A stretch of DNA of 64,000 nucleotides from Acidimicrobiia bacterium. Its GTDB lineage: Bacteria > Actinomycetota > Acidimicrobiia > Spongiisociales > ZC4RG35. This document shows, piece after piece, positions 2,728 to 59,163 of this stretch. The position numbers and the translations under genes are program-made. Numbering within the stretch: position 1 is the stretch's first letter; each line of letters opens with the position of its first letter. The notes below the pieces were generated by a model. That model was not told the origin of the DNA and made no database searches. It saw nothing but the letters and a program-made list of their open reading frames with translations. Location: positions 33,008 through 97,007 of the forward strand of contig DATBKE010000125.1 in NCBI GenBank assembly GCA_036556085.1, in the 5' to 3' direction.

Positions 2728-3938
2728 AGGTCTTGATTGCCGGCAGCGGCTTCTCGGGATCGATGGTGGCCCGGGGGCTGGCCCGAAAGTCGGGCGTCGA
2801 AGTGATAATCGTCAACGCCGACAATTTTCTGCTTTTCACTCCCATGCTGGCCGAGGCCGCGGTGGGCGACGTCGATCCCCGCCACATCATCGCTCCAATC
2901 CGCCAGCTCGCCCCTGGCGCCGAATTGGTTCAAGGGATTATCGAGTCCATCGATGCCGAGCGGCGCATGGTCGTCGTCAATCGTCTCTTCGGTGAAGTTA
3001 CCGAGTCCATCAGCGCCGACGTCTTGGTTCTGGCATTGGGTTCGGTCAGCAATACCTACGGGGTGGTGGGAGCCGACCAACACGCCCTCCCCTTCAAGAC
3101 CATCGTCGATGCACTGCGGATCCGAAATCGCATCCTGGCCAAGATGGAGGCCGAGGGGAGCGTGTCGGTGGCTGTGGTCGGAGCCGGATTCTCCGGAGCG
3201 GAGTTGACCGCGGCGCTGGCCGACTTCCTTCGCGAGGTGCATCAGCGCTTCTACCGTGCGGGAGCCCCTCCCCGGGTCACCCTCGTGGATGCGGTCGATC
3301 GGGTCACTCCCGCTCTCACTTCTTCGCTCTCGAGGTCAGCGGCCAGGGCACTCGCCAAGCGCGATGTTCGGCTCGTACTCGGATCTGCAGTGACCGCGGT
3401 GAGCACCGAAGGCGTTCAGCTCCAAAGTGGCGAGTTTGTCGAGGCGGGAACCGTGATCTGGGCGGCGGGGATCAAACCGCATCCCCTCTTGGCTCGAACC
3501 GGGCTTGAGACCAATGGCGACAAGATCCCAGTTGACCGGCATTTTCGCTCGGCACGAGAAGGCGTCTATGCGGTGGGTGACGCCGCCCTCTCGCCCACCG
3601 GTGACGGTGGATTCTCGCCCCCCACCGCCCAGTTCGCCCTCCGTCAGGGGAGGTATCTGGGAAGGAATCTCGATGTCATCCAAACCGGTGGGACCGTGGA
3701 GCCGTTTTCCTACCAAACCAAGGGCGAGCTGGTTTCGCTCGGTCATCGCAATGCTGTCGGGAGGGTGCTGGGGATCCCGGTCTCGGGGCTGATTGGCTGG
3801 TTCCTCTGGCGGAGCTACTACTTGCTGCAATTGCCCACCACTCTGCGCAAGGCCCGTGTAGCCGCCGACTGGACCCTCGACCTCTTCTTCCCCCCCGACA
3901 TCGCCTGGCTCCCCAGCTCCGACCTCGGCCCCCTTTAG
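2724..3938 (+). CDS. ndh: FAD/NAD(P)-binding oxidoreductase, type II NADH dehydrogenase (NDH-2)-like
   Basis: MKVLIAGSGFSG Rossmann start, a second GAGFSG dinucleotide motif, a GDAA motif, and a C-terminal membrane-anchoring segment. ATGA overlap with the upstream ORF. The longer frame from 2394 is an N-terminal artefact. Confidence 0.75.
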   Translation: MKVLIAGSGFSGSMVARGLARKSGVEVIIVNADNFLLFTPMLAEAAVGDVDPRHIIAPIRQLAPGAELVQGIIESIDAERRMVVVNRLFGEVTESISADVLVLALGSVSNTYGVVGADQHALPFKTIVDALRIRNRILAKMEAEGSVSVAVVGAGFSGAELTAALADFLREVHQRFYRAGAPPRVTLVDAVDRVTPALTSSLSRSAARALAKRDVRLVLGSAVTAVSTEGVQLQSGEFVEAGTVIWAAGIKPHPLLARTGLETNGDKIPVDRHFRSAREGVYAVGDAALSPTGDGGFSPPTAQFALRQGRYLGRNLDVIQTGGTVEPFSYQTKGELVSLGHRNAVGRVLGIPVSGLIGWFLWRSYYLLQLPTTLRKARVAADWTLDLFFPPDIAWLPSSDLGPL

Positions 3939-3990
3939 GAAACCTAAGGCTTCAGCATGCGGAATCCGCATGTTTCTGCATTAGGAATGA
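3937..3990. repeat. palindromic intergenic element, copy 1 (AAACCTAAGG...GCATGCGGAATCCGCATG...TTAGG)
   Basis: 17-bp near-perfect palindrome CATGCGGAATCCGCATG flanked by AAACCTAAGG and TTAGG. A second copy of the same architecture is at 59105..59163. Confidence 0.5.
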
Positions 3991-9207: not shown

Positions 9208-9251
9208 CTTGCGTAAATCCGGGGCATTTTCCTCCGCCGGATTTACGCAAG
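9208..9251. terminator. perfect 15-bp inverted repeat hairpin 3 bp after the ilvD stop
   Basis: CTTGCGTAAATCCGG (9208-9222) / CCGGATTTACGCAAG (9237-9251) with a 14-nt loop and no U-tract. Likely a U-less actinobacterial terminator; a protein binding site is an alternative. Confidence 0.45.
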
Positions 9252-9567: not shown

Positions 9568-10329
9568 ATGCTGCTCGTATCCGATGTCCACGGGGCCTTC
9601 GATGCCCTGGAAGCGGTAGTTGCCCGCGGACAGACGCTTCTGATACTGGGAGATCTGATCAACCTCCTCGACTACCGGACGCGGGAGGGAATCATCGCCG
9701 ATGTGCTCGGCGAGCAGTTCGGCGCCCGCGTGGCGGGTCATCGGGCGAGCGGCGATTACCAGGCGATGCGCGATGCCTGGGGTGAGGTCGCCGGCGACCG
9801 TCGCGATGAGGTGAGAGCTGCGATCACCCGCGGCATCGAGGCGCAATATGCCGGCTGTCAGAAGGCCTTGGCGGGTGCAGTCGGCTTCTGCACCTACGGA
9901 AATGTCGATAACCCCGAGTTGCTGGCAGCGGTGCTGCCAGAGACGATGCGATTCGTCGATGGCGAGGTTCACGAGATCGAAGGCGTGACCGTCGGCTTTG
10001 TCGGAGGAGGCATCTCCACCCCCCTCGGAGCAGCGGGAGAGGTGACGGACGAAGACATGAGCCGAAAGCTCGAGAAGCTCGGTCCCGTCGACGTGCTCTG
10101 CTCGCACCTCCCGCCCCAAATCGATCCCCTCTGCACCGACGTCATAACCGGCCGGCGTGAGAGAAGCTCGGAACCCATCCTCGACTACGTGCGACGCTTT
10201 CAGCCCCGACACCATTTCTTCGGCGACGTCCATCAACCCCGGGCCGTGACCTGGAGGGTCGGGAAGACCCTGTGCCGCAACGTTGGTTACTTCCGGGCCA
10301 CCAAGCGTCCGGTAATTTTCGAACGATGA
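9568..10329 (+). CDS. metallophosphoesterase (calcineurin-like)
   Basis: MLLVSDVHG...GDLIN...GNVD motifs of the MPP superfamily. Confidence 0.8.
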   Translation: MLLVSDVHGAFDALEAVVARGQTLLILGDLINLLDYRTREGIIADVLGEQFGARVAGHRASGDYQAMRDAWGEVAGDRRDEVRAAITRGIEAQYAGCQKALAGAVGFCTYGNVDNPELLAAVLPETMRFVDGEVHEIEGVTVGFVGGGISTPLGAAGEVTDEDMSRKLEKLGPVDVLCSHLPPQIDPLCTDVITGRRERSSEPILDYVRRFQPRHHFFGDVHQPRAVTWRVGKTLCRNVGYFRATKRPVIFER

Positions 10330-11219
10330 CGCGGGCCATGGCGGTCTTGGCGGTGGCCCTCAGCGCCTGTTCGTCACAGGCGATCCCCACCACCGGATTC
10401 TCAACGCCGACGACAGTGTCACCCGCCTCGGCCCCGACCACGAGCGCCACCCCAACGACAATCGCCCCGACTACCACTGCCGCTGTGACCACCACTGCCG
10501 CTCCCGAGCCGGGCACGGTGCGCCCCGACTGGCTGGGGACCAGGGTCCTCCCCGAGCGTCCCGACGGTCTCGGCGTTGCCCAACCAACCCCGCCCGAGAT
10601 GGTCAACCGCCGGTTTCCTTCCCCCGACTTGTTGCCTCCGCCCACCGGAGACGACTTTGAATTCACTTTGGGACCGGTTCCGGCCGAGGTCGCCGCCCGT
10701 TCCTCCTGGCAGGAGGGCTGCCCGGTCAGCCTCGAGGAGCTGTCATATCTGACGGTGAGCTTTGTCGGGTTCGACGGTGCCAGCCATACGGGAGAGCTGC
10801 TGGTCAATGCCGGTCACTCCGAAGGGATCGTCGACGTGATGAGGCTGCTCTACGAGACCAGGTTTCCCATTGAAGAGATGAGAGTCATCACCGCCGAAGA
10901 GATCGAGGCTCCGCCCACCGGTGATTGGAACTCCACGACCAGCTTCGTTTGCCGGCCGGCGGTGGGGCGGGACAGCGGCTGGTCGATGCACGCGTTCGGT
11001 CTGGCACTTGACATCAACCCTTTTCACAACCCATATCTGCGGGGCGAGGTTGTGGTTCCCGAGCTGGCTAGCTCCTATACCGAACGTGCTGCGCTGCGTC
11101 CGGGGATGATCGATTCCGAGAGCCCGGTGGTCACCGCCTTCGCCGAGATCGGCTGGGAGTGGGGCGGCAATTGGCAAAGCGCCAAGGACTGGATGCACTT
11201 CTCGGAGAACGGTCGCTGA
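10326..11219 (+). CDS. lipoprotein with Thr/Pro-rich linker and C-terminal M15 (VanY-like D,D-carboxypeptidase) domain
   Basis: Lipobox signal MTRAMAVLAVALSAC. A T/P-rich low-complexity linker. M15 zinc ligands in SMHAFGLALD and DWMHF. ATGA overlap with the preceding gene. Confidence 0.8.
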   Translation: MTRAMAVLAVALSACSSQAIPTTGFSTPTTVSPASAPTTSATPTTIAPTTTAAVTTTAAPEPGTVRPDWLGTRVLPERPDGLGVAQPTPPEMVNRRFPSPDLLPPPTGDDFEFTLGPVPAEVAARSSWQEGCPVSLEELSYLTVSFVGFDGASHTGELLVNAGHSEGIVDVMRLLYETRFPIEEMRVITAEEIEAPPTGDWNSTTSFVCRPAVGRDSGWSMHAFGLALDINPFHNPYLRGEVVVPELASSYTERAALRPGMIDSESPVVTAFAEIGWEWGGNWQSAKDWMHFSENGR

Positions 11220-13102: not shown

Positions 13103-13925
13103 CCGATCGGGCTCGTCCACGTTCATCGGTGTCGATGTCGGTGGCACGCAGATCAAGGCCGTTCGGTTGGAGGAGGAGACCGTCATCGAAGAATGGCGGA
13201 TGGGACGCCAACCGGAGGGTTGGATCGAGCAAGTCGTCGATCTGGTTCGAAACGTCGGCTCCAGCGCCACGGTGGGTGTAGGCGTCGCCGGCCTGGTCGA
13301 CCATGTCTCCGGGCGCCTGATCTGGGCCCCTCACATCGCCGACACCGATATCGAGCTGGGCCTCGAACTGGGCCGACGGCTCGGTCGACGAGTGTGGGTC
13401 GACAATGACGCGAACTGCGCGGTTCTCGCCGAGAGCCGGCTGGGCGCGGGTATTGGTTTCGACACCGTCTTGGTCGTGATGTTTGGAACTGGGATCGGGA
13501 TGGGACTGGCGGTCAAAGGCGAGGTGTTTCACGGCCGCGGTCTGGCGGGAGAAGCCGGACACATGACGATGGTTCCGGATGGTGATCCCTGCCCCTGCGG
13601 GAAACGGGGGTGTTGGGAGACGGTGGTCTCGGGATGGAGATTGGACCAAGGCCTTCCGATAATGGCCGCAGGTACCTGGATGGGAAGGGGAATCGCCAAT
13701 TTGATCGCGATCCTCGATCCCGACATCGTCGTGGTCGGAGGCGGAGTGATCGATGCTTCCGGTGAGGAGATCCTCGCGGCTGCACGCTCCGAGATCGGTT
13801 ATGCCCTCGCAGGTGCGGACCATCGGGAGTCAACCCCCGTGGTGGCCGGGCGCTTCGGGATCTGGGCGGGAGCGGTGGGGGCGGCCTTGCTTCCGGGTGC
13901 TAAACGCTTCGCCGATTTATCCTGA
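13092..13925 (+). CDS. ROK family sugar kinase (glucokinase-like)
   Basis: FIGVDVGGTQIK ATP-binding start, the ROK zinc motif CPCGKRGCWE, and GTGIG. Confidence 0.85.
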   Translation: MSNSRSGSSTFIGVDVGGTQIKAVRLEEETVIEEWRMGRQPEGWIEQVVDLVRNVGSSATVGVGVAGLVDHVSGRLIWAPHIADTDIELGLELGRRLGRRVWVDNDANCAVLAESRLGAGIGFDTVLVVMFGTGIGMGLAVKGEVFHGRGLAGEAGHMTMVPDGDPCPCGKRGCWETVVSGWRLDQGLPIMAAGTWMGRGIANLIAILDPDIVVVGGGVIDASGEEILAAARSEIGYALAGADHRESTPVVAGRFGIWAGAVGAALLPGAKRFADLS

Positions 13926-15251: not shown

Positions 15252-16421
15252 GTGGACTTCCGTCGCATCGGCGATCTCCCGCCCTACGTGTTTGGGACGG
15301 TTAACCAGCGCAAGCTCGAGGCCCGGCGGGAGGGGGAGGACATCATCGACCTCGGTTTCGGCAACCCCGACATTCCGAGCGCGGTGAATGTGGTCGACAA
15401 GTTGATCGAGGCCGCCCAGAACCCCCGCAACCACCGATATTCGGTGAGCCGGGGGCTGCCGAATCTGCGCAAGGCGGCGGCCGATCGGTACCAGCGGCGA
15501 TTCGGGGTGTCACTCGATCCTGAGGCTGAGGTCATCGCCACGATCGGAGCCAAAGAGGGCCTGTCGCACCTGCTCTGGGTCCTGGTCGAGCCTGGCGACG
15601 TGGCGGTCGTGCCTGAGCCTTCCTATCCGATCCACATTTACGCCCCCGGGCTGGCGGGAGCCGAAGTTCGCCGCGTTCCGGTGACTGCCGATGAGACCTA
15701 CTTCGAACGGCTGGAGGCAGAAGTTGCTCGCGCTCCAAGTCCGCGCGTGGTCATCTGTGCCTTTCCCCACAACCCCACCACGATCTGTGTCGACCTCGGG
15801 TTTTTTCGCCGACTGGTGGAGATGGCCCATGAGCACGGATTCTTCGTGGTTCACGACTTTGCCTACGCCGACGTTCACTTCGACGGCTACCTGCCACCTT
15901 CGATCCTCGAAGTGGAAGGGGCAAAGGAAGTGGCGGTCGAGCTCTATACGTTGACGAAGGGCCATTCGATGGCCGGCTGGCGGATGGGTTTTTGCGTCGG
16001 CAACCGAGACGCGATCGCAGCCCTGGCCAAGCTCAAGAGCTATCTCGACTATGGCACCTTCCAACCGATTCAAGTTGCCTCGATCATCGCCTTGAACGAG
16101 GGAGACGAATACGTGGCCGAGGTCCGCGAGACGTACGAGAGACGCCGCAACGTGCTCGTCGAAGGTCTCAGCCGCAATGGGTGGAAGGTGGAGAGGCCAT
16201 CGGGGACGATGTTCCTCTGGGCCCCGATACCGGATCCGTATCAGGAGTTGGGCTCGATGGCCTTCACCCTCGACCTGCTCGACCGGGCCAAGGTGGCGGT
16301 CAGTCCCGGGATCGGTTTCGGGCCTAGCGGCGACGGGCATGTGCGTTTCGCATTGGTCGAGAACGAGCACCGCATCTCGCAAGCGGTGCGTGGTATCCGC
16401 AAGGCCCTCGACCGGCTCTAA
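15252..16421 (+). CDS. PLP-dependent aminotransferase, AlaA/AspC class I
   Basis: GTG start. LPPYVFG...GNPD...SKAF-like motifs. 389 aa, full-length class I/II aminotransferase. Confidence 0.85.
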   Translation: MDFRRIGDLPPYVFGTVNQRKLEARREGEDIIDLGFGNPDIPSAVNVVDKLIEAAQNPRNHRYSVSRGLPNLRKAAADRYQRRFGVSLDPEAEVIATIGAKEGLSHLLWVLVEPGDVAVVPEPSYPIHIYAPGLAGAEVRRVPVTADETYFERLEAEVARAPSPRVVICAFPHNPTTICVDLGFFRRLVEMAHEHGFFVVHDFAYADVHFDGYLPPSILEVEGAKEVAVELYTLTKGHSMAGWRMGFCVGNRDAIAALAKLKSYLDYGTFQPIQVASIIALNEGDEYVAEVRETYERRRNVLVEGLSRNGWKVERPSGTMFLWAPIPDPYQELGSMAFTLDLLDRAKVAVSPGIGFGPSGDGHVRFALVENEHRISQAVRGIRKALDRL

Positions 16422-16423
16422 TA

Positions 16424-17609
16424 CTGCGCGGATTTTTCCGCTCCTGAGACGAACAAATCCGCACAGATTCGACCCGCTTCCCTTTCGTGCAGGAAAATTC
16501 GTCTCCCACACGAGAAAATCCGCGCAGCTGGTCACGAACGGGGGGAAGGCGCCGCCGACAGACCCCTTGCTCTCTCCTTGAATTCCTGACACCTTCTTTC
16601 GATGGACCTGGCTGCGATACATGCGTTCGCGGCGGTCAATCACGGTCTGGTGGATCGGCCGACCATCCAGCAGTACGGGTGCTCCGACGAGGCCGTCGCA
16701 GGCTTTGTGGGCGCGGGACATTGGACCCCGATCCACGCCGGCGTTTATCAGATCGGAGTTACACCCCTTACATGGCGGGGGCGGCTCCGAGCGGCGACGC
16801 TGGCCGCCGGGCCCCTGGCTGTCATCTCTCATCGCACCGCTGCTCAGCTGTGGGGGCTGCAGGGAGTCAGCTTTGCGCCGATCGAATTGACAGTCCCAGT
16901 CGGTCACCTTCCGACCCCCGAGAGCGTGATCGTCCATCGAACGCGCCGTCCCATCGAGCAGGGCATTGTCGACGCAATTCCGGTGGTGCCCGTTGAGCGG
17001 GCAATTCTCGACTCTGCTGCCTACGTGCCCATTGCCACAGTCGAGCAGCTCTACGACAGCGGCATCCGCCTGAGATTGACCTGCCCGGAGAAGATGGCGG
17101 AGTGTTTGTATGCCCATGGCAAGAGGGGAGTCAAGGGGCGTTCAAAGGTGCTCGCCATGCTCGACGGCCGACGAACCGGGCCAGCCCTCGGCAGTCCTGT
17201 CGAGACCTTCATCCTGCGCAGGATGCGTTTGGCCGGGATCGAGGAGCCGGAGCGTCAATTCATCCTTGTGTTGGCGGATGGCACCATCGCGGTTCTTGAC
17301 TTCGCTTGGCCCCGGCGGGTCAAAGCGATCGAGATCGACGGATTGGAGGCTCACTCCGGTGCCCGTCAGCTCGAGTTGGACCTGGTGCGTCAAAACCTGA
17401 TCCTCGAGTCAGGATGGCAGCTGCGTCGGTTCTCGGGGCGATTCGTGATGCGAAACCCTGGTTTGGTTATCCAAGAGATTGCCCGCTTTCTCGCTGCCTG
17501 ATCTCTGCGCGGATAAATCCGTATCCGGCACGGAAAAACCTGCACAGCAGCCACCCCAGGTGAGTTCTGTGCGGAAAAGTTCGTGGCTGGCACGGAAAAA
17601 TCCGCGCAG
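16424..17609. mobile_element. 1,186-bp insertion-like segment bounded by perfect 16-bp terminal inverted repeats (CTGCGCGGATTTTTCC), carrying one DUF559/AbiEi-type ORF; REP13E12-like
   Basis: 16424-16439 is the exact reverse complement of 17594-17609 (19/21 over the extended ends). Motif variants repeat mirror-symmetrically at both ends. The segment fills the junction between the aminotransferase stop (+3 bp) and the ltaE start (-22 bp). Confidence 0.55.
16602..17501 (+). CDS. DUF559 (Vsr-like endonuclease fold) protein with N-terminal AbiEi_4-like domain
   Basis: 299 aa. The N-terminus ([16 protein letters not shown]...[14 protein letters not shown]...[12 protein letters not shown]) is AbiEi-like. 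The C-terminus (DFAWP...[36 protein letters not shown]) is DUF559-like, as in the mycobacterial REP13E12 ORFs. Confidence 0.7.
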
Positions 17610-17631
17610 AGGGTTGAACTACCCTCGGGCC

Positions 17632-18657
17632 ATGGCATTTTCAGACGGGAGCGCCGACTTTCGCTCCGACACCGTTACCCGACCGACCGAGGAGATGCGC
17701 CGGGCGATGGCGGAGGCCGAGGTGGGAGACGATGTTTATCACGACGACCCCACCGTCAACGCCCTCGAGGAGGAAGCGGCAGCGGTAGTCGGGAAGGAAG
17801 CAGCGGTCTTCATGCCGACGGGGACCATGGGAAACCAGATCGCGGTGATGCTGCAGACCAAGCCCGGCGACGACGTCCTGGCCGATCCCGGGGTCCATGT
17901 GCGCAACGTCGAGGCCGGGGGGCCGGCGGCGCTCTCGGGAGTCGCCTTTCGTACGGTCGATTCGACTGCTGGACAGGTGACACCGGCCCAGGTCGAGGCG
18001 GCCATAGCCCAGGCCGGGTTCTTTCCCCGCATCAGGCTCATGATCTGGGAGAACACCCACAATCTCTCCGGTGGAAGAGTCGTGCCTCACGAATTGATGG
18101 CGGAGACCAGCGCCACGGCTCGCCGCCACGGCCTGGCGATTCATCTCGACGGGGCCCGGCTCTTCAACGCCGTGGTCGCCTCGGGCGTTTCCGCCGACTC
18201 ATTTGCCGCCACGGCCGACACCGTCCAGTTCTGCTTTTCCAAGGGCCTGGGGGCCCCTGTGGGCTCCGTGCTCTGCGGGACCGAGGAGATGATGGGGGAG
18301 GCTCGCTATCTTCGCAAGCGCATGGGCGGGGGCATGCGCCAGGCGGGCGTGATCGCCGCCGCCGCTCGAATCGCCCTCCGGGATCGGGATCGACTCAAGG
18401 AAGACCATGAGCTCGCCCACTACCTGGCCGAGAGCCTCGACCGCGCCCATTCAGGCCTGGTCGATGTCGCCCAGGTGGAAACCAACATGTGCCAGATCCA
18501 ACCTGAGCGCCTTCCGCGGCCTCTTCCCGAGTGGCGAGAGGCCTTGTCAACCCAAGGAATCAAGATCAACCCCGCGTTTGGCGGCATCCTCCGTCTGGTG
18601 ACCCACCGCGACGTCAACCGCGACGACGTCGACCGCCTGGTTCGCAGCCTCGGCTGA
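17632..18657 (+). CDS. ltaE: low-specificity L-threonine aldolase
   Basis: [10 protein letters not shown], the PLP-lysine region [13 protein letters not shown], and the [12 protein letters not shown] motif. The longer frame from 17479 is an artefact. Confidence 0.85.
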
Positions 18658-59104: not shown

Positions 59105-59163
59105 GCAGCAAACCTAAGGTTTGGTGCTGCGGAAACCGCATGCTGGAACCTTAGGTTTGCGCT
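59105..59163. repeat. palindromic intergenic element, copy 2 (AAACCTAAGGTTTGG...GCGGAAACCGCATGC...CCTTAGGTTTG)
   Basis: Arms GCAAACCTAAGGTT / AACCTTAGGTTTGC around a GCGGAAACCGC core. Same architecture as 3937..3990. Sits in the 74-bp convergent gap between dnaE and the HAD gene. Confidence 0.5.

Follow-up and report, generated by a model that had tools for sequence, protein, structure and literature searches.

Background

The AbiEi protein binds two 23-bp inverted repeats that lie 3 bp apart, with one monomer per repeat, and Rv2827c binds four inverted repeats arranged as two pairs (PMC7319586). Here we describe a gene that encodes a homologous AbiEi-like module, joined to a Vsr-like nuclease domain, and that is enclosed by palindromes of comparable topology in the genome of an uncultured Acidimicrobiia bacterium (assembly GCA_036556085.1, contig DATBKE010000125.1, positions 33,008 to 97,007 of the forward strand). 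This whole stretch of 64,000 nucleotides is referred to as the window, and coordinates are positions within it unless a related locus (L numbers) is named. The gene and the two palindromes on either side of it make up a unit of 1,186 bp (16424-17609, + strand) that looks like an undescribed selfish gene cassette. With a probability that we put at roughly 55%, the four 43-bp dyad-symmetric sites are the predicted binding sites of the encoded protein and, at the same time, the ends of a 1.2-kb selfish, occasionally mobile cassette.

Each side of the cassette has the alternating two-pair topology of the Rv2827c sites (PMC7319586), but the geometry of the sites differs: 17+9+17 with a 19-nt gap in the cassette, 23+3+23 for AbiEi, and 23+13+23 with a 4-nt gap for Rv2827c. 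Unlike those operators, the cassette arrays lie off the putative promoter, are repeated on the far side of the gene and belong to a unit that behaves like an insertion. It also has no AbiEii nucleotidyltransferase toxin, carrying the fused Vsr-like nuclease instead; it is therefore not an AbiE toxin-antitoxin system.

The nuclease has the same fold as Vsr-like (EDxHD) homing endonucleases such as I-Bth0305I (3R3P), and free-standing homing endonuclease genes are likewise small selfish nuclease genes with presence/absence polymorphism at conserved loci. Unlike these, the cassette lies outside any intron, intein or phage, has a DNA-binding module of the AbiEi type, and shows strong conservation as well as long residence at some sites; intact cognate palindromes, absent from an empty site (L022), stand on both sides of it, with no split target. 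A single gene between its own cognate palindromes, under purifying selection and with a palindrome type of its own for each paralogue, is also the arrangement of the repetitive extragenic palindromic (REP)/REPIN-RAYT systems (REPtrons), and the long-hairpin doublets of REPINs resemble the ~105-nt doublets of the cassette. The cassette enzyme, however, is of another class than the Y1/HUH transposases, GTAG and CGTC tags are missing, and the palindromes do not form a dispersed, high-copy population (one of 40 modules is solo, and none of the window type occurs elsewhere in the 64 kb).

Insertion sequences (IS) with hairpin ends, among them IS200/IS605, as well as IS1397 and IS621, share with the cassette a small size (~1.2 kb), a single gene, sub-terminal hairpin structures that have one orientation at both ends and the lack of an obvious target-site duplication, but the cassette has no TnpA, TnpB, DDE transposase or serine/tyrosine recombinase, and the hairpin sets on its two sides are copies of each other. 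In comparison with a classical IS or transposon, its ends are copies of a palindrome, so that terminal inverted and direct repeats are indistinguishable in the window. Integron cassettes, finally, are promoterless open reading frames (ORFs), each with an attC site (RYYYAAC...GTTRRRY), arrayed beside intI, whereas this cassette ends in CTG...CAG, is single, has a promoter-like leader and lacks intI. Taken on its sequence, the unit would be a variant built on AbiEi-type operator sites and selfish nuclease genes.

Results

Occupied and empty junctions

In the window the cassette lies between an aminotransferase gene upstream and a threonine-aldolase gene downstream, and it runs through two palindromes, a promoter/leader region, the nuclease gene and two further palindromes. 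The same junction is empty in L022, a relative with 78% identity in the threonine aldolase; there only 21 nt separate the TAA of the aminotransferase gene from the aldolase ATG, and this interval holds neither palindrome nor ORF. Alignment of the two junctions places the boundaries between TAA-TA and CTGCG... on the left and between ...CGCAG and AGGGTTGAAC-TACCCT-N6-ATG on the right. The empty junction thus delimits 16424-17609, including both palindrome sets, as the inserted unit, and the comparison shows the segment, palindromes included, to be an insertion between two housekeeping genes. No short direct target-site duplication was found at the cassette boundaries, either in the window junction alignment or in related loci.

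The aminotransferase/aldolase junction is occupied in the window, L011, L012 and L021 and empty in L022. Between the genes for xanthine dehydrogenase and adenosine deaminase, the cassette is present in L015-L019, L151 and L156, whereas the stop and start codons of the two genes overlap (TGATG) at the empty junction of L153/L154. All of these occupied/empty comparisons are between distant relatives. A single 42-nt CTGCG...CGCAG palindrome of different sequence occupies the same aminotransferase/aldolase junction in L024/L025 (L024 3935-3976), which means that this junction gained a palindrome independently at least twice.

At the left end of the L011 cassette (9814-9833), part of the terminus, 10 nt long, is duplicated (CTGCGCGGCT CTGCGCGGAT). 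Between the window (16602-17498) and L011 (10001-10897), the synonymous divergence (dS) of the nuclease gene is 0.25, and that of the flanking genes is 0.50 and 0.36. The lower value of the nuclease gene could mean that the cassettes share an ancestor more recent than that of the surrounding sequence, or that the gene is under additional constraint.

Four palindromes around one gene

A sequence-only reading of the window had proposed mirror-symmetric arrays of a 16-bp motif, with four copies or variants in alternating orientation at each end of the segment. The whole 64-kb window was scanned for the pattern CTGYGCGGAWWWWTCC with up to two mismatches, using 100 shuffles as a control. Matches within the cassette flanks start at 16424+, 16451-, 16512-, 17505+, 17532-, 17567+ and 17594-, and a single weak one lies elsewhere, at 13907; the chance expectation is 0.58 matches, and none of the 100 shuffles reached 8. 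Seven of the eight proposed copies are therefore within two mismatches, and the eighth (~16487), which belongs to the module at 16485-16527, is degenerate, as had been claimed. The spacings of 25-36 nt also agree with the 25-35 bp given before. The 16-mer itself, however, is not the natural unit. Both a repeat finder and our own scans return a 43-nt imperfect palindrome, CTG-N37-CAG, and the motif copies are the half-sites (arms) of four such palindromes, which stand as a tandem pair on each side of ORF 16602-17501 with a start-to-start period of 61-62 nt.

On the left, module 1 (16424-16466, CTGCGCGGATTTTTCCG-loop-CGAACAAATCCGCACAG) begins 2 nt past the aminotransferase TAA stop codon, folds at -15.4 kcal/mol and scores 40.2 bits (E = 4e-9) in a covariance model trained on 20 modules. 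Left module 2 (16485-16527, TCGTGCAGG...AAAATCCGCGCAG) is a degenerate 43-nt copy that scores weakly by itself (12.5 bits, E = 0.42) and is placed by the alignment of the long elements and their consensus fold; it pairs with module 1 to form a long hairpin of ~105 nt. On the right, module 1 (17505-17547, CTGCGCGGATAAATCCG...CGGAAAAACCTGCACAG), which lay outside the training set, begins 3 nt past the TGA stop codon of the ORF and scores 25.2 bits (E = 9e-5), and module 2 (17567-17609, CTGTGCGGAAAAGTTCG...CGGAAAAATCCGCGCAG) folds at -22.7 kcal/mol, scores 34.7 bits and ends 22 nt ahead of the threonine-aldolase ATG. A single long hairpin (-44 to -65 kcal/mol, z = -5.4 to -8.3) can form from each ~105-nt side. 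The first pair at each end had been expected to form a hairpin, but on the right the good local hairpin is the second module. No Rfam 15 family matched the 64-kb window at the gathering score.

Mirror symmetry of the two ends is not established. The left and right sides of the window match at 66% in direct and 66% in inverted orientation, because each side is itself palindromic, and where orientation is readable in relatives the two flanks are direct repeats. In L013 they match at 99% directly and 75% inverted; in L018 they are virtually identical direct repeats, and their non-palindromic lead-in CCTCAAA is likewise repeated directly.

The intergenic palindromes at 3955 and 59128 had been linked to the cassette by a shared core, but they belong to a different palindrome family. 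These elements (3938-3985 and 59108-59160, the second folding at -36.6 kcal/mol) have AAACCTAAGG...CCTTAGGTTT ends and a TGCGGAA(A/T)CCGCA centre, and they were rejected as relatives of the modules on account of these ends, the GCGGA-A/AA-CCGC centre and their other spacing.

An AbiEi-like module fused to a Vsr-type nuclease

The gene (16602-17501, + strand) encodes 299 aa with an AbiEi-like module (residues ~1-195), made up of a winged helix and a C-terminal domain, followed by a PD-(D/E)XK nuclease of the Vsr/DUF559/MTES_1575 type (~198-299). PADLOC AbiEi models match residues 5-166 (E = 7e-23), and Pfam AbiEi_4 is detected in 15 of 31 family members. The last ~70 residues score 21.6 bits with Pfam DUF559 (cut-off 20.6) and 25.6 bits with MTES_1575, which is below its cut-off of 38.2; the sequence-profile match in the PDB is to the DUF559 structure 3HRL (E = 9e-9). 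The AlphaFold model of the protein has a predicted local distance difference test score (pLDDT) of 91. Its top fold matches in Foldseek are the AbiEi antitoxin 6Y8Q, on which the first ~200 residues superpose (E = 1e-5, target TM-score 0.64), and the catalytic domain of the I-Bth0305I homing endonuclease, 3R3P, on which the last ~100 residues superpose (target TM-score 0.72), with AbaSI, PvuRts1I and Vsr (4PAR, 4OQ2, 1CW0) as further matches of the nuclease domain.

Residues E201, D233, E244, D246, H251 and D260 of the nuclease are invariant or nearly so in 31 homologues. The ratio of nonsynonymous to synonymous divergence (dN/dS) of the nuclease gene is 0.06-0.09 between close pairs, similar to that of the flanking housekeeping genes, and by this measure shows strong purifying selection. 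None of the domains of the cassette protein belongs to a known class of transposase or recombinase (DDE, Y1/HUH, serine, tyrosine), and at no locus does an AbiEii (DUF1814) toxin gene adjoin the gene, all neighbours being housekeeping genes such as those for the aminotransferase and the threonine aldolase. With 11,490 clusters at 50% identity (E <= 1e-30), the family of the protein is very large; the plasmid and phage collections contained no match to the window protein.

A putative promoter and leaderless starts

The leader of the nuclease gene (16561-16601, + strand) contains blocks that are conserved at fixed distances. Ten loci have in common GACCCCTT(s)C, 17 nt, TGnCAnnTT, 6-7 nt and the start codon; the window has GACCCCTT/TTGCTC (16561-16572), a 17-nt spacer, TG, a -10-like CACCTT (16590-16595), 6 nt and ATG. 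These blocks would fit an extended -10 promoter of a leaderless mRNA. A sigma-70 consensus scan found no promoter, so that the case for this promoter is its conservation. The upstream palindrome array ends ~74 nt before the ATG and ~32 nt upstream of the putative -35 element, with no promoter overlap. A terminator scan of 16300-17750 found no + strand terminator and no U-tract, the only terminator-like site being on the - strand.

Outside the cassette, the downstream gene has a leaderless-type start of its own, TACCCT (TANNNT) plus 6 nt and ATG (17620-17634, + strand), which is also found at empty and solo sites (TAACCT-N6-ATG in the threonine-aldolase start region of L022, 2299-2313; TACCCT-N6-ATG in L024, 3989-4003). 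Both this gene and the nuclease gene start 6-7 nt past a TANNNT or CANNTT hexamer, without a Shine-Dalgarno sequence, which suggests widespread leaderless transcription in this lineage.

Recurrence in other gene neighbourhoods

Homologues 31-87% identical to the window protein are found in about eight gene neighbourhoods with palindromes of the same design, which flank the gene on both sides in most of them. The gene lies between an AMP-ligase and a tryptophan dioxygenase gene (L010, L014; 64% identity to the window protein), between the xanthine dehydrogenase and adenosine deaminase genes (L015-L019, L151, L156; 54-70%), in a fourth context upstream of an SRAP-domain gene (L013; 68%), with a Rieske protein gene upstream (L020; 54%), between SpoU methylase and an M20 peptidase on the opposite strand (L152; 46%), between uricase and a DUF6986 gene on the opposite strand (L153, L154; 39%) and, in Blastococcus, between clpX and valS (L155; 31%). 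These neighbourhoods show that gene and palindromes together recur as a unit at unrelated loci. In each of the eight contexts the cassette has the same orientation as the gene upstream of it, and in most of them the first palindrome lies 0-25 nt past the upstream gene's stop codon or overlaps it.

In L016 (~390-400), L151 (~9893-9900) and L152 (9895-9911), the host gene upstream ends at a stop codon that lies within the 5' arm of the palindrome (CTGTGA, CTGA or ...GGCTGA). In L152 the nuclease gene, too, takes its stop codon and final residues from an arm (10911-10927). The repeated segment therefore extends into coding sequence, and the stop codon lies within it in L018, L152 and L155. An orthologous copy in L021 (2956-3853; 87% identity over the best segment) is a frameshifted pseudogene with four in-frame stops, and its flanking palindromes are still recognisable; it is a decaying cassette. 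Direct copies of TGACGCCCGGTTCCG...CCGGGCG.CGGCGCAC hairpins flank the homologue of Blastococcus sp. TF02A-30 (L155 5890-5950 and 6922-6965), and the gene-palindrome arrangement thus reaches beyond Acidimicrobiia.

A distant member of the family in another high-GC metagenome (L119 1850-2050, reverse-complement strand; 31% identity to protein P0118) has nested palindromes right after the stop codon, with CTGTGCGGATTC...GAATCCGCGCAG and repeated CGCAGATGG...CCATCTG units. A scan of metagenome DNA for CTGCGCGGAT-N15-45-ATCCGCRCAG gave at least 120 matches; among the matches listed, which are unrelated, none is of the window type and only L119 adjoins a family gene. The 17-mer CTGCGCGGATTTTTCCG has five chance matches in viral contigs, none of them with a hairpin partner.

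Palindrome types across the protein family

The arm sequence varies by protein lineage, being CTGCGCGGATTTT in the window, L010/L014, L013, L015 and L021, CTGTGAAGGTTTGCGCGG in L016 and L017, CTGTGAGGATTTACGCGG in L018, CTGAGCGGATTT in L151, CTGTGAACG in L152 and CTGTGTCGGTTT in L153. Two paralogues in the metagenome-assembled genome SMAG_U8528 (L011 and L018) each have a palindrome type of their own. L015 lies at the L016-L018 locus, yet its protein groups with the window clade and its palindrome is of the window-clade type. Across these lineages, palindrome type is shown to track the protein tree and not the locus, while length, CTG/CAG ends and dyad symmetry persist.

The length is exactly 43 nt in 26 of 29 modules. 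Twenty modules align without gaps, and dyad symmetry holds at 83.5% of their arm positions, compared with 66% in shuffles, and none of 500 shuffles reaches 83.5%; changes occur on both arms at 13 of 17 positions, and slid registers, used as a control, give 33-52%. The alignment of the long hairpins (10 elements, ~105 nt) contains 28 consensus pairs, four of them with double changes. The inner palindrome GCGGA-W4-TCCGC, which had been taken for the core of the motif, is absent from the CTGTGAAGG, CTGTGAGGA and CTGTGTCGG versions in relatives and hence is not a general feature.

In the 64-kb window the covariance model recovers three of the four flank modules at E < 1e-3, the degenerate fourth at E = 0.42 and one solo candidate at 9209-9250 (E = 0.013); there are no other copies of the window palindrome type. 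In 280 kb of related loci, which were selected for carrying the gene, it finds 40 distinct modules at E <= 0.05; 39 of them have a family gene no more than 300 nt away, and the remaining one is solo.

This lone solo module (L019 12643-12685, 43 nt, GTGCAGGTAAGCGCACC..., of the L019/L020 type) has a 221-aa ORF on one side and rpoC on the other, at a distance of 1.7 kb from the cassette. The idea that L020 is an insertion at that position was rejected, as ORF mapping shows differing positions. The candidate at 9209-9250, which also occurs in L011 (2456-2503), is a 42-nt palindrome, CTTGCGTAAATCCGG...CCGGATTTACGCAAG, with a weak model match of 17.8 bits. It follows a gene of the dihydroxy-acid dehydratase family (PF00920), in L011 2 nt past its stop codon, and has GCGTAAATCC in common with arms of the L018 type; perhaps it is a relic, or else a solo representative of the module family.

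Discussion

A protein proposed to be tethered to the ends of its own gene

With the modules taken, as is simplest, as the cognate binding sites of the cassette protein, their fixed 43-bp length, CTG/CAG ends and dyad symmetry would reflect two-fold recognition by a protein, which explains these features at least as well as base pairing does. By homology to AbiEi and Rv2827c, the AbiEi-like domain would bind the modules, one domain per half-site, holding the protein at both ends of its own gene, where autoregulation is possible. The tethered nuclease may then cut at or near its cognate palindromes. Recombinational repair between palindrome copies might move or restore the cassette in a homing-like manner, with the palindrome as portable homology, so that either side would end up with a complete palindrome, and recombination between the two flanks might delete the gene and leave a solo palindrome. 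Cutting, repair and deletion are the least certain steps; among possible mechanisms, we consider nuclease-triggered recombination between palindrome copies the likeliest. Binding of its own ends by a nuclease-bearing protein, as in transposases and homing enzymes, together with insertion polymorphism and multiple genomic locations, leads us to the selfish-cassette interpretation, and the solo palindromes at the same junction in L024 and at L019 12643-12685 count in its favor.

The sequence-only reading had offered two interpretations of the arrays, as subterminal repeats of a transposon-like element or as an operator array of an AbiEi-like protein, and the two are compatible with each other. 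What stands of the former is that the repeats bound a 1,186-bp insertion and that the unit is found in about eight unrelated neighbourhoods; the absence of a transposase or recombinase and of a target-site duplication, and flanks that are direct palindrome copies instead of classical terminal inverted repeats, do not fit it. The latter is upheld by homology, through the AbiEi match (E = 7e-23), the superposition on 6Y8Q and the Rv2827c topology (PMC7319586), but not by the position of the arrays, which are off the putative promoter and include a second array downstream of the gene, nor by a partner, as the AbiEii toxin is missing.

Several observations weigh against a selfish, mobile cassette. 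Palindromes are one-sided in L151 (upstream only) and L015 (downstream only), the distant homologue L119 has family-type palindromes downstream only, and in L156 only an upstream module was detected. At the xanthine dehydrogenase/adenosine deaminase site, the divergence of the gene roughly tracks that of its neighbours, which, with the low dN/dS, would fit long vertical residence and perhaps a function useful to the host. The solo palindrome of L024 differs in sequence from the window palindromes and is therefore no demonstration of excision of the window cassette, and the association of modules with the gene was counted in loci chosen for carrying it. Mobility is deduced only from the comparison of distantly related genomes, and binding and cleavage are likewise predicted. 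To our knowledge, a stand-alone PD-(D/E)XK nuclease is incapable of strand transfer. The site of a classical homing endonuclease is destroyed by the insertion, whereas here intact sites are present on both sides. Long residence at one locus and a low dN/dS may leave room for a host-useful or purely regulatory role.

Other explanations of the palindromes

A purely regulatory role would make the palindromes autoregulatory operators, perhaps of an upstream-downstream repression loop, of a resident, non-mobile AbiEi-nuclease gene that reached several loci by ordinary rearrangement or transfer. The AbiEi domain is clear, AbiEi and Rv2827c autoregulate via two or four inverted repeats, the gene is under strongly purifying selection and its stay at the xanthine dehydrogenase/adenosine deaminase site has been long. 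We nevertheless regard this explanation as unlikely, given that the arrays stop ~32 nt short of the putative -35 element without overlapping the promoter, that near-identical palindrome copies follow the stop codon of the gene, that gene and palindromes are absent together from empty sites, and that the same palindrome type accompanies the gene in four unrelated neighbourhoods. The hairpins might also be the target of the insertion and not its cargo, that is, terminator or REP-like stem-loops of the host at gene 3' ends, in or beside which the nuclease gene preferentially inserts, duplicating them. IS1397 and IS621, which insert in REP sequences, would be the model. Consistent with such a target, the first palindrome is in most contexts 0-25 nt past, or overlapping, the stop codon of a co-oriented upstream gene, solo palindromes stand directly 3' of stop codons in L024 and at 9209-9250, and the repeated segment takes in the stop codon in L018, L152 and L155. 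Empty sites in L022 and L153 are, however, without any hairpin, palindrome type tracks the protein lineage across genomes and loci and differs between two paralogues of one genome, and, flanks aside, only one of the 40 modules in 280 kb is solo; we regard a host target as unlikely, too.

The position of each array within a few nucleotides of a stop codon, its strong folding (z = -5.4 to -8.3) and the co-orientation with the upstream gene in eight of eight contexts would also suit a role in RNA, in which cassette-borne 3' stem-loops act as terminators, insulators or mRNA stabilisers and spare the host operon. We think this improbable: there is neither a U-tract nor a terminator-like match on the + strand, Rfam gave no match, covariance-model scores are alike on both strands, and arm mismatches (GT 35, AC 22, other 71) show no clear + strand G-U excess and lend no support to an RNA role. 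The retention of the 43-nt length and CTG/CAG ends through full sequence turnover suggests recognition by a protein instead. Very improbable, in our view, is that the flanks are attL/attR-like products of a recombinase encoded elsewhere, in the style of integron attC or Xer-dif sites. They are direct repeats of a structured site, and solo sites exist, but no locus has an integrase, Xer or integron gene nearby, there is no GTTRRRY core of the attC type, the cassettes are single and each has its own putative promoter, and the constant cargo of one gene family would be left unexplained.

Conclusions

Genes of this kind are currently annotated as 'DUF559 domain-containing protein' or 'type IV toxin-antitoxin AbiEi family antitoxin domain-containing protein', with neither an assigned function nor a known partner toxin, and our literature search found no description of an AbiEi-DUF559 gene with flanking palindromes. 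Going beyond the individual cassette, we tentatively propose, with less confidence than doubt, that it represents an unrecognised class of autonomous selfish element in Actinobacteria, in which an AbiEi-Vsr fusion recognises its own 43-bp end palindromes and spreads or persists by nuclease-triggered recombination between their copies; such a class would be a functional parallel of REPIN-RAYT or homing systems built from different parts.

The pairing of the gene with cognate palindromes, which lie on one side of it or on both, the insertion of this unit and the joint diversification of palindrome and protein lead to a concrete hypothesis that can be tested for a very large family of orphan genes: a site-specific nuclease tethered to its own ends, for which the 43-bp sites are defined DNA substrates. 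If the arrangement is a general one, it would account for the AbiEi-DUF559 genes that occur in multiple copies across Actinobacteria and carry the annotation of orphan 'antitoxins'. If mobility holds true, an element based on PD-(D/E)XK and AbiEi domains would join the short list of palindrome-associated mobile systems, and naturally diversified pairs of protein and DNA recognition site would become available.

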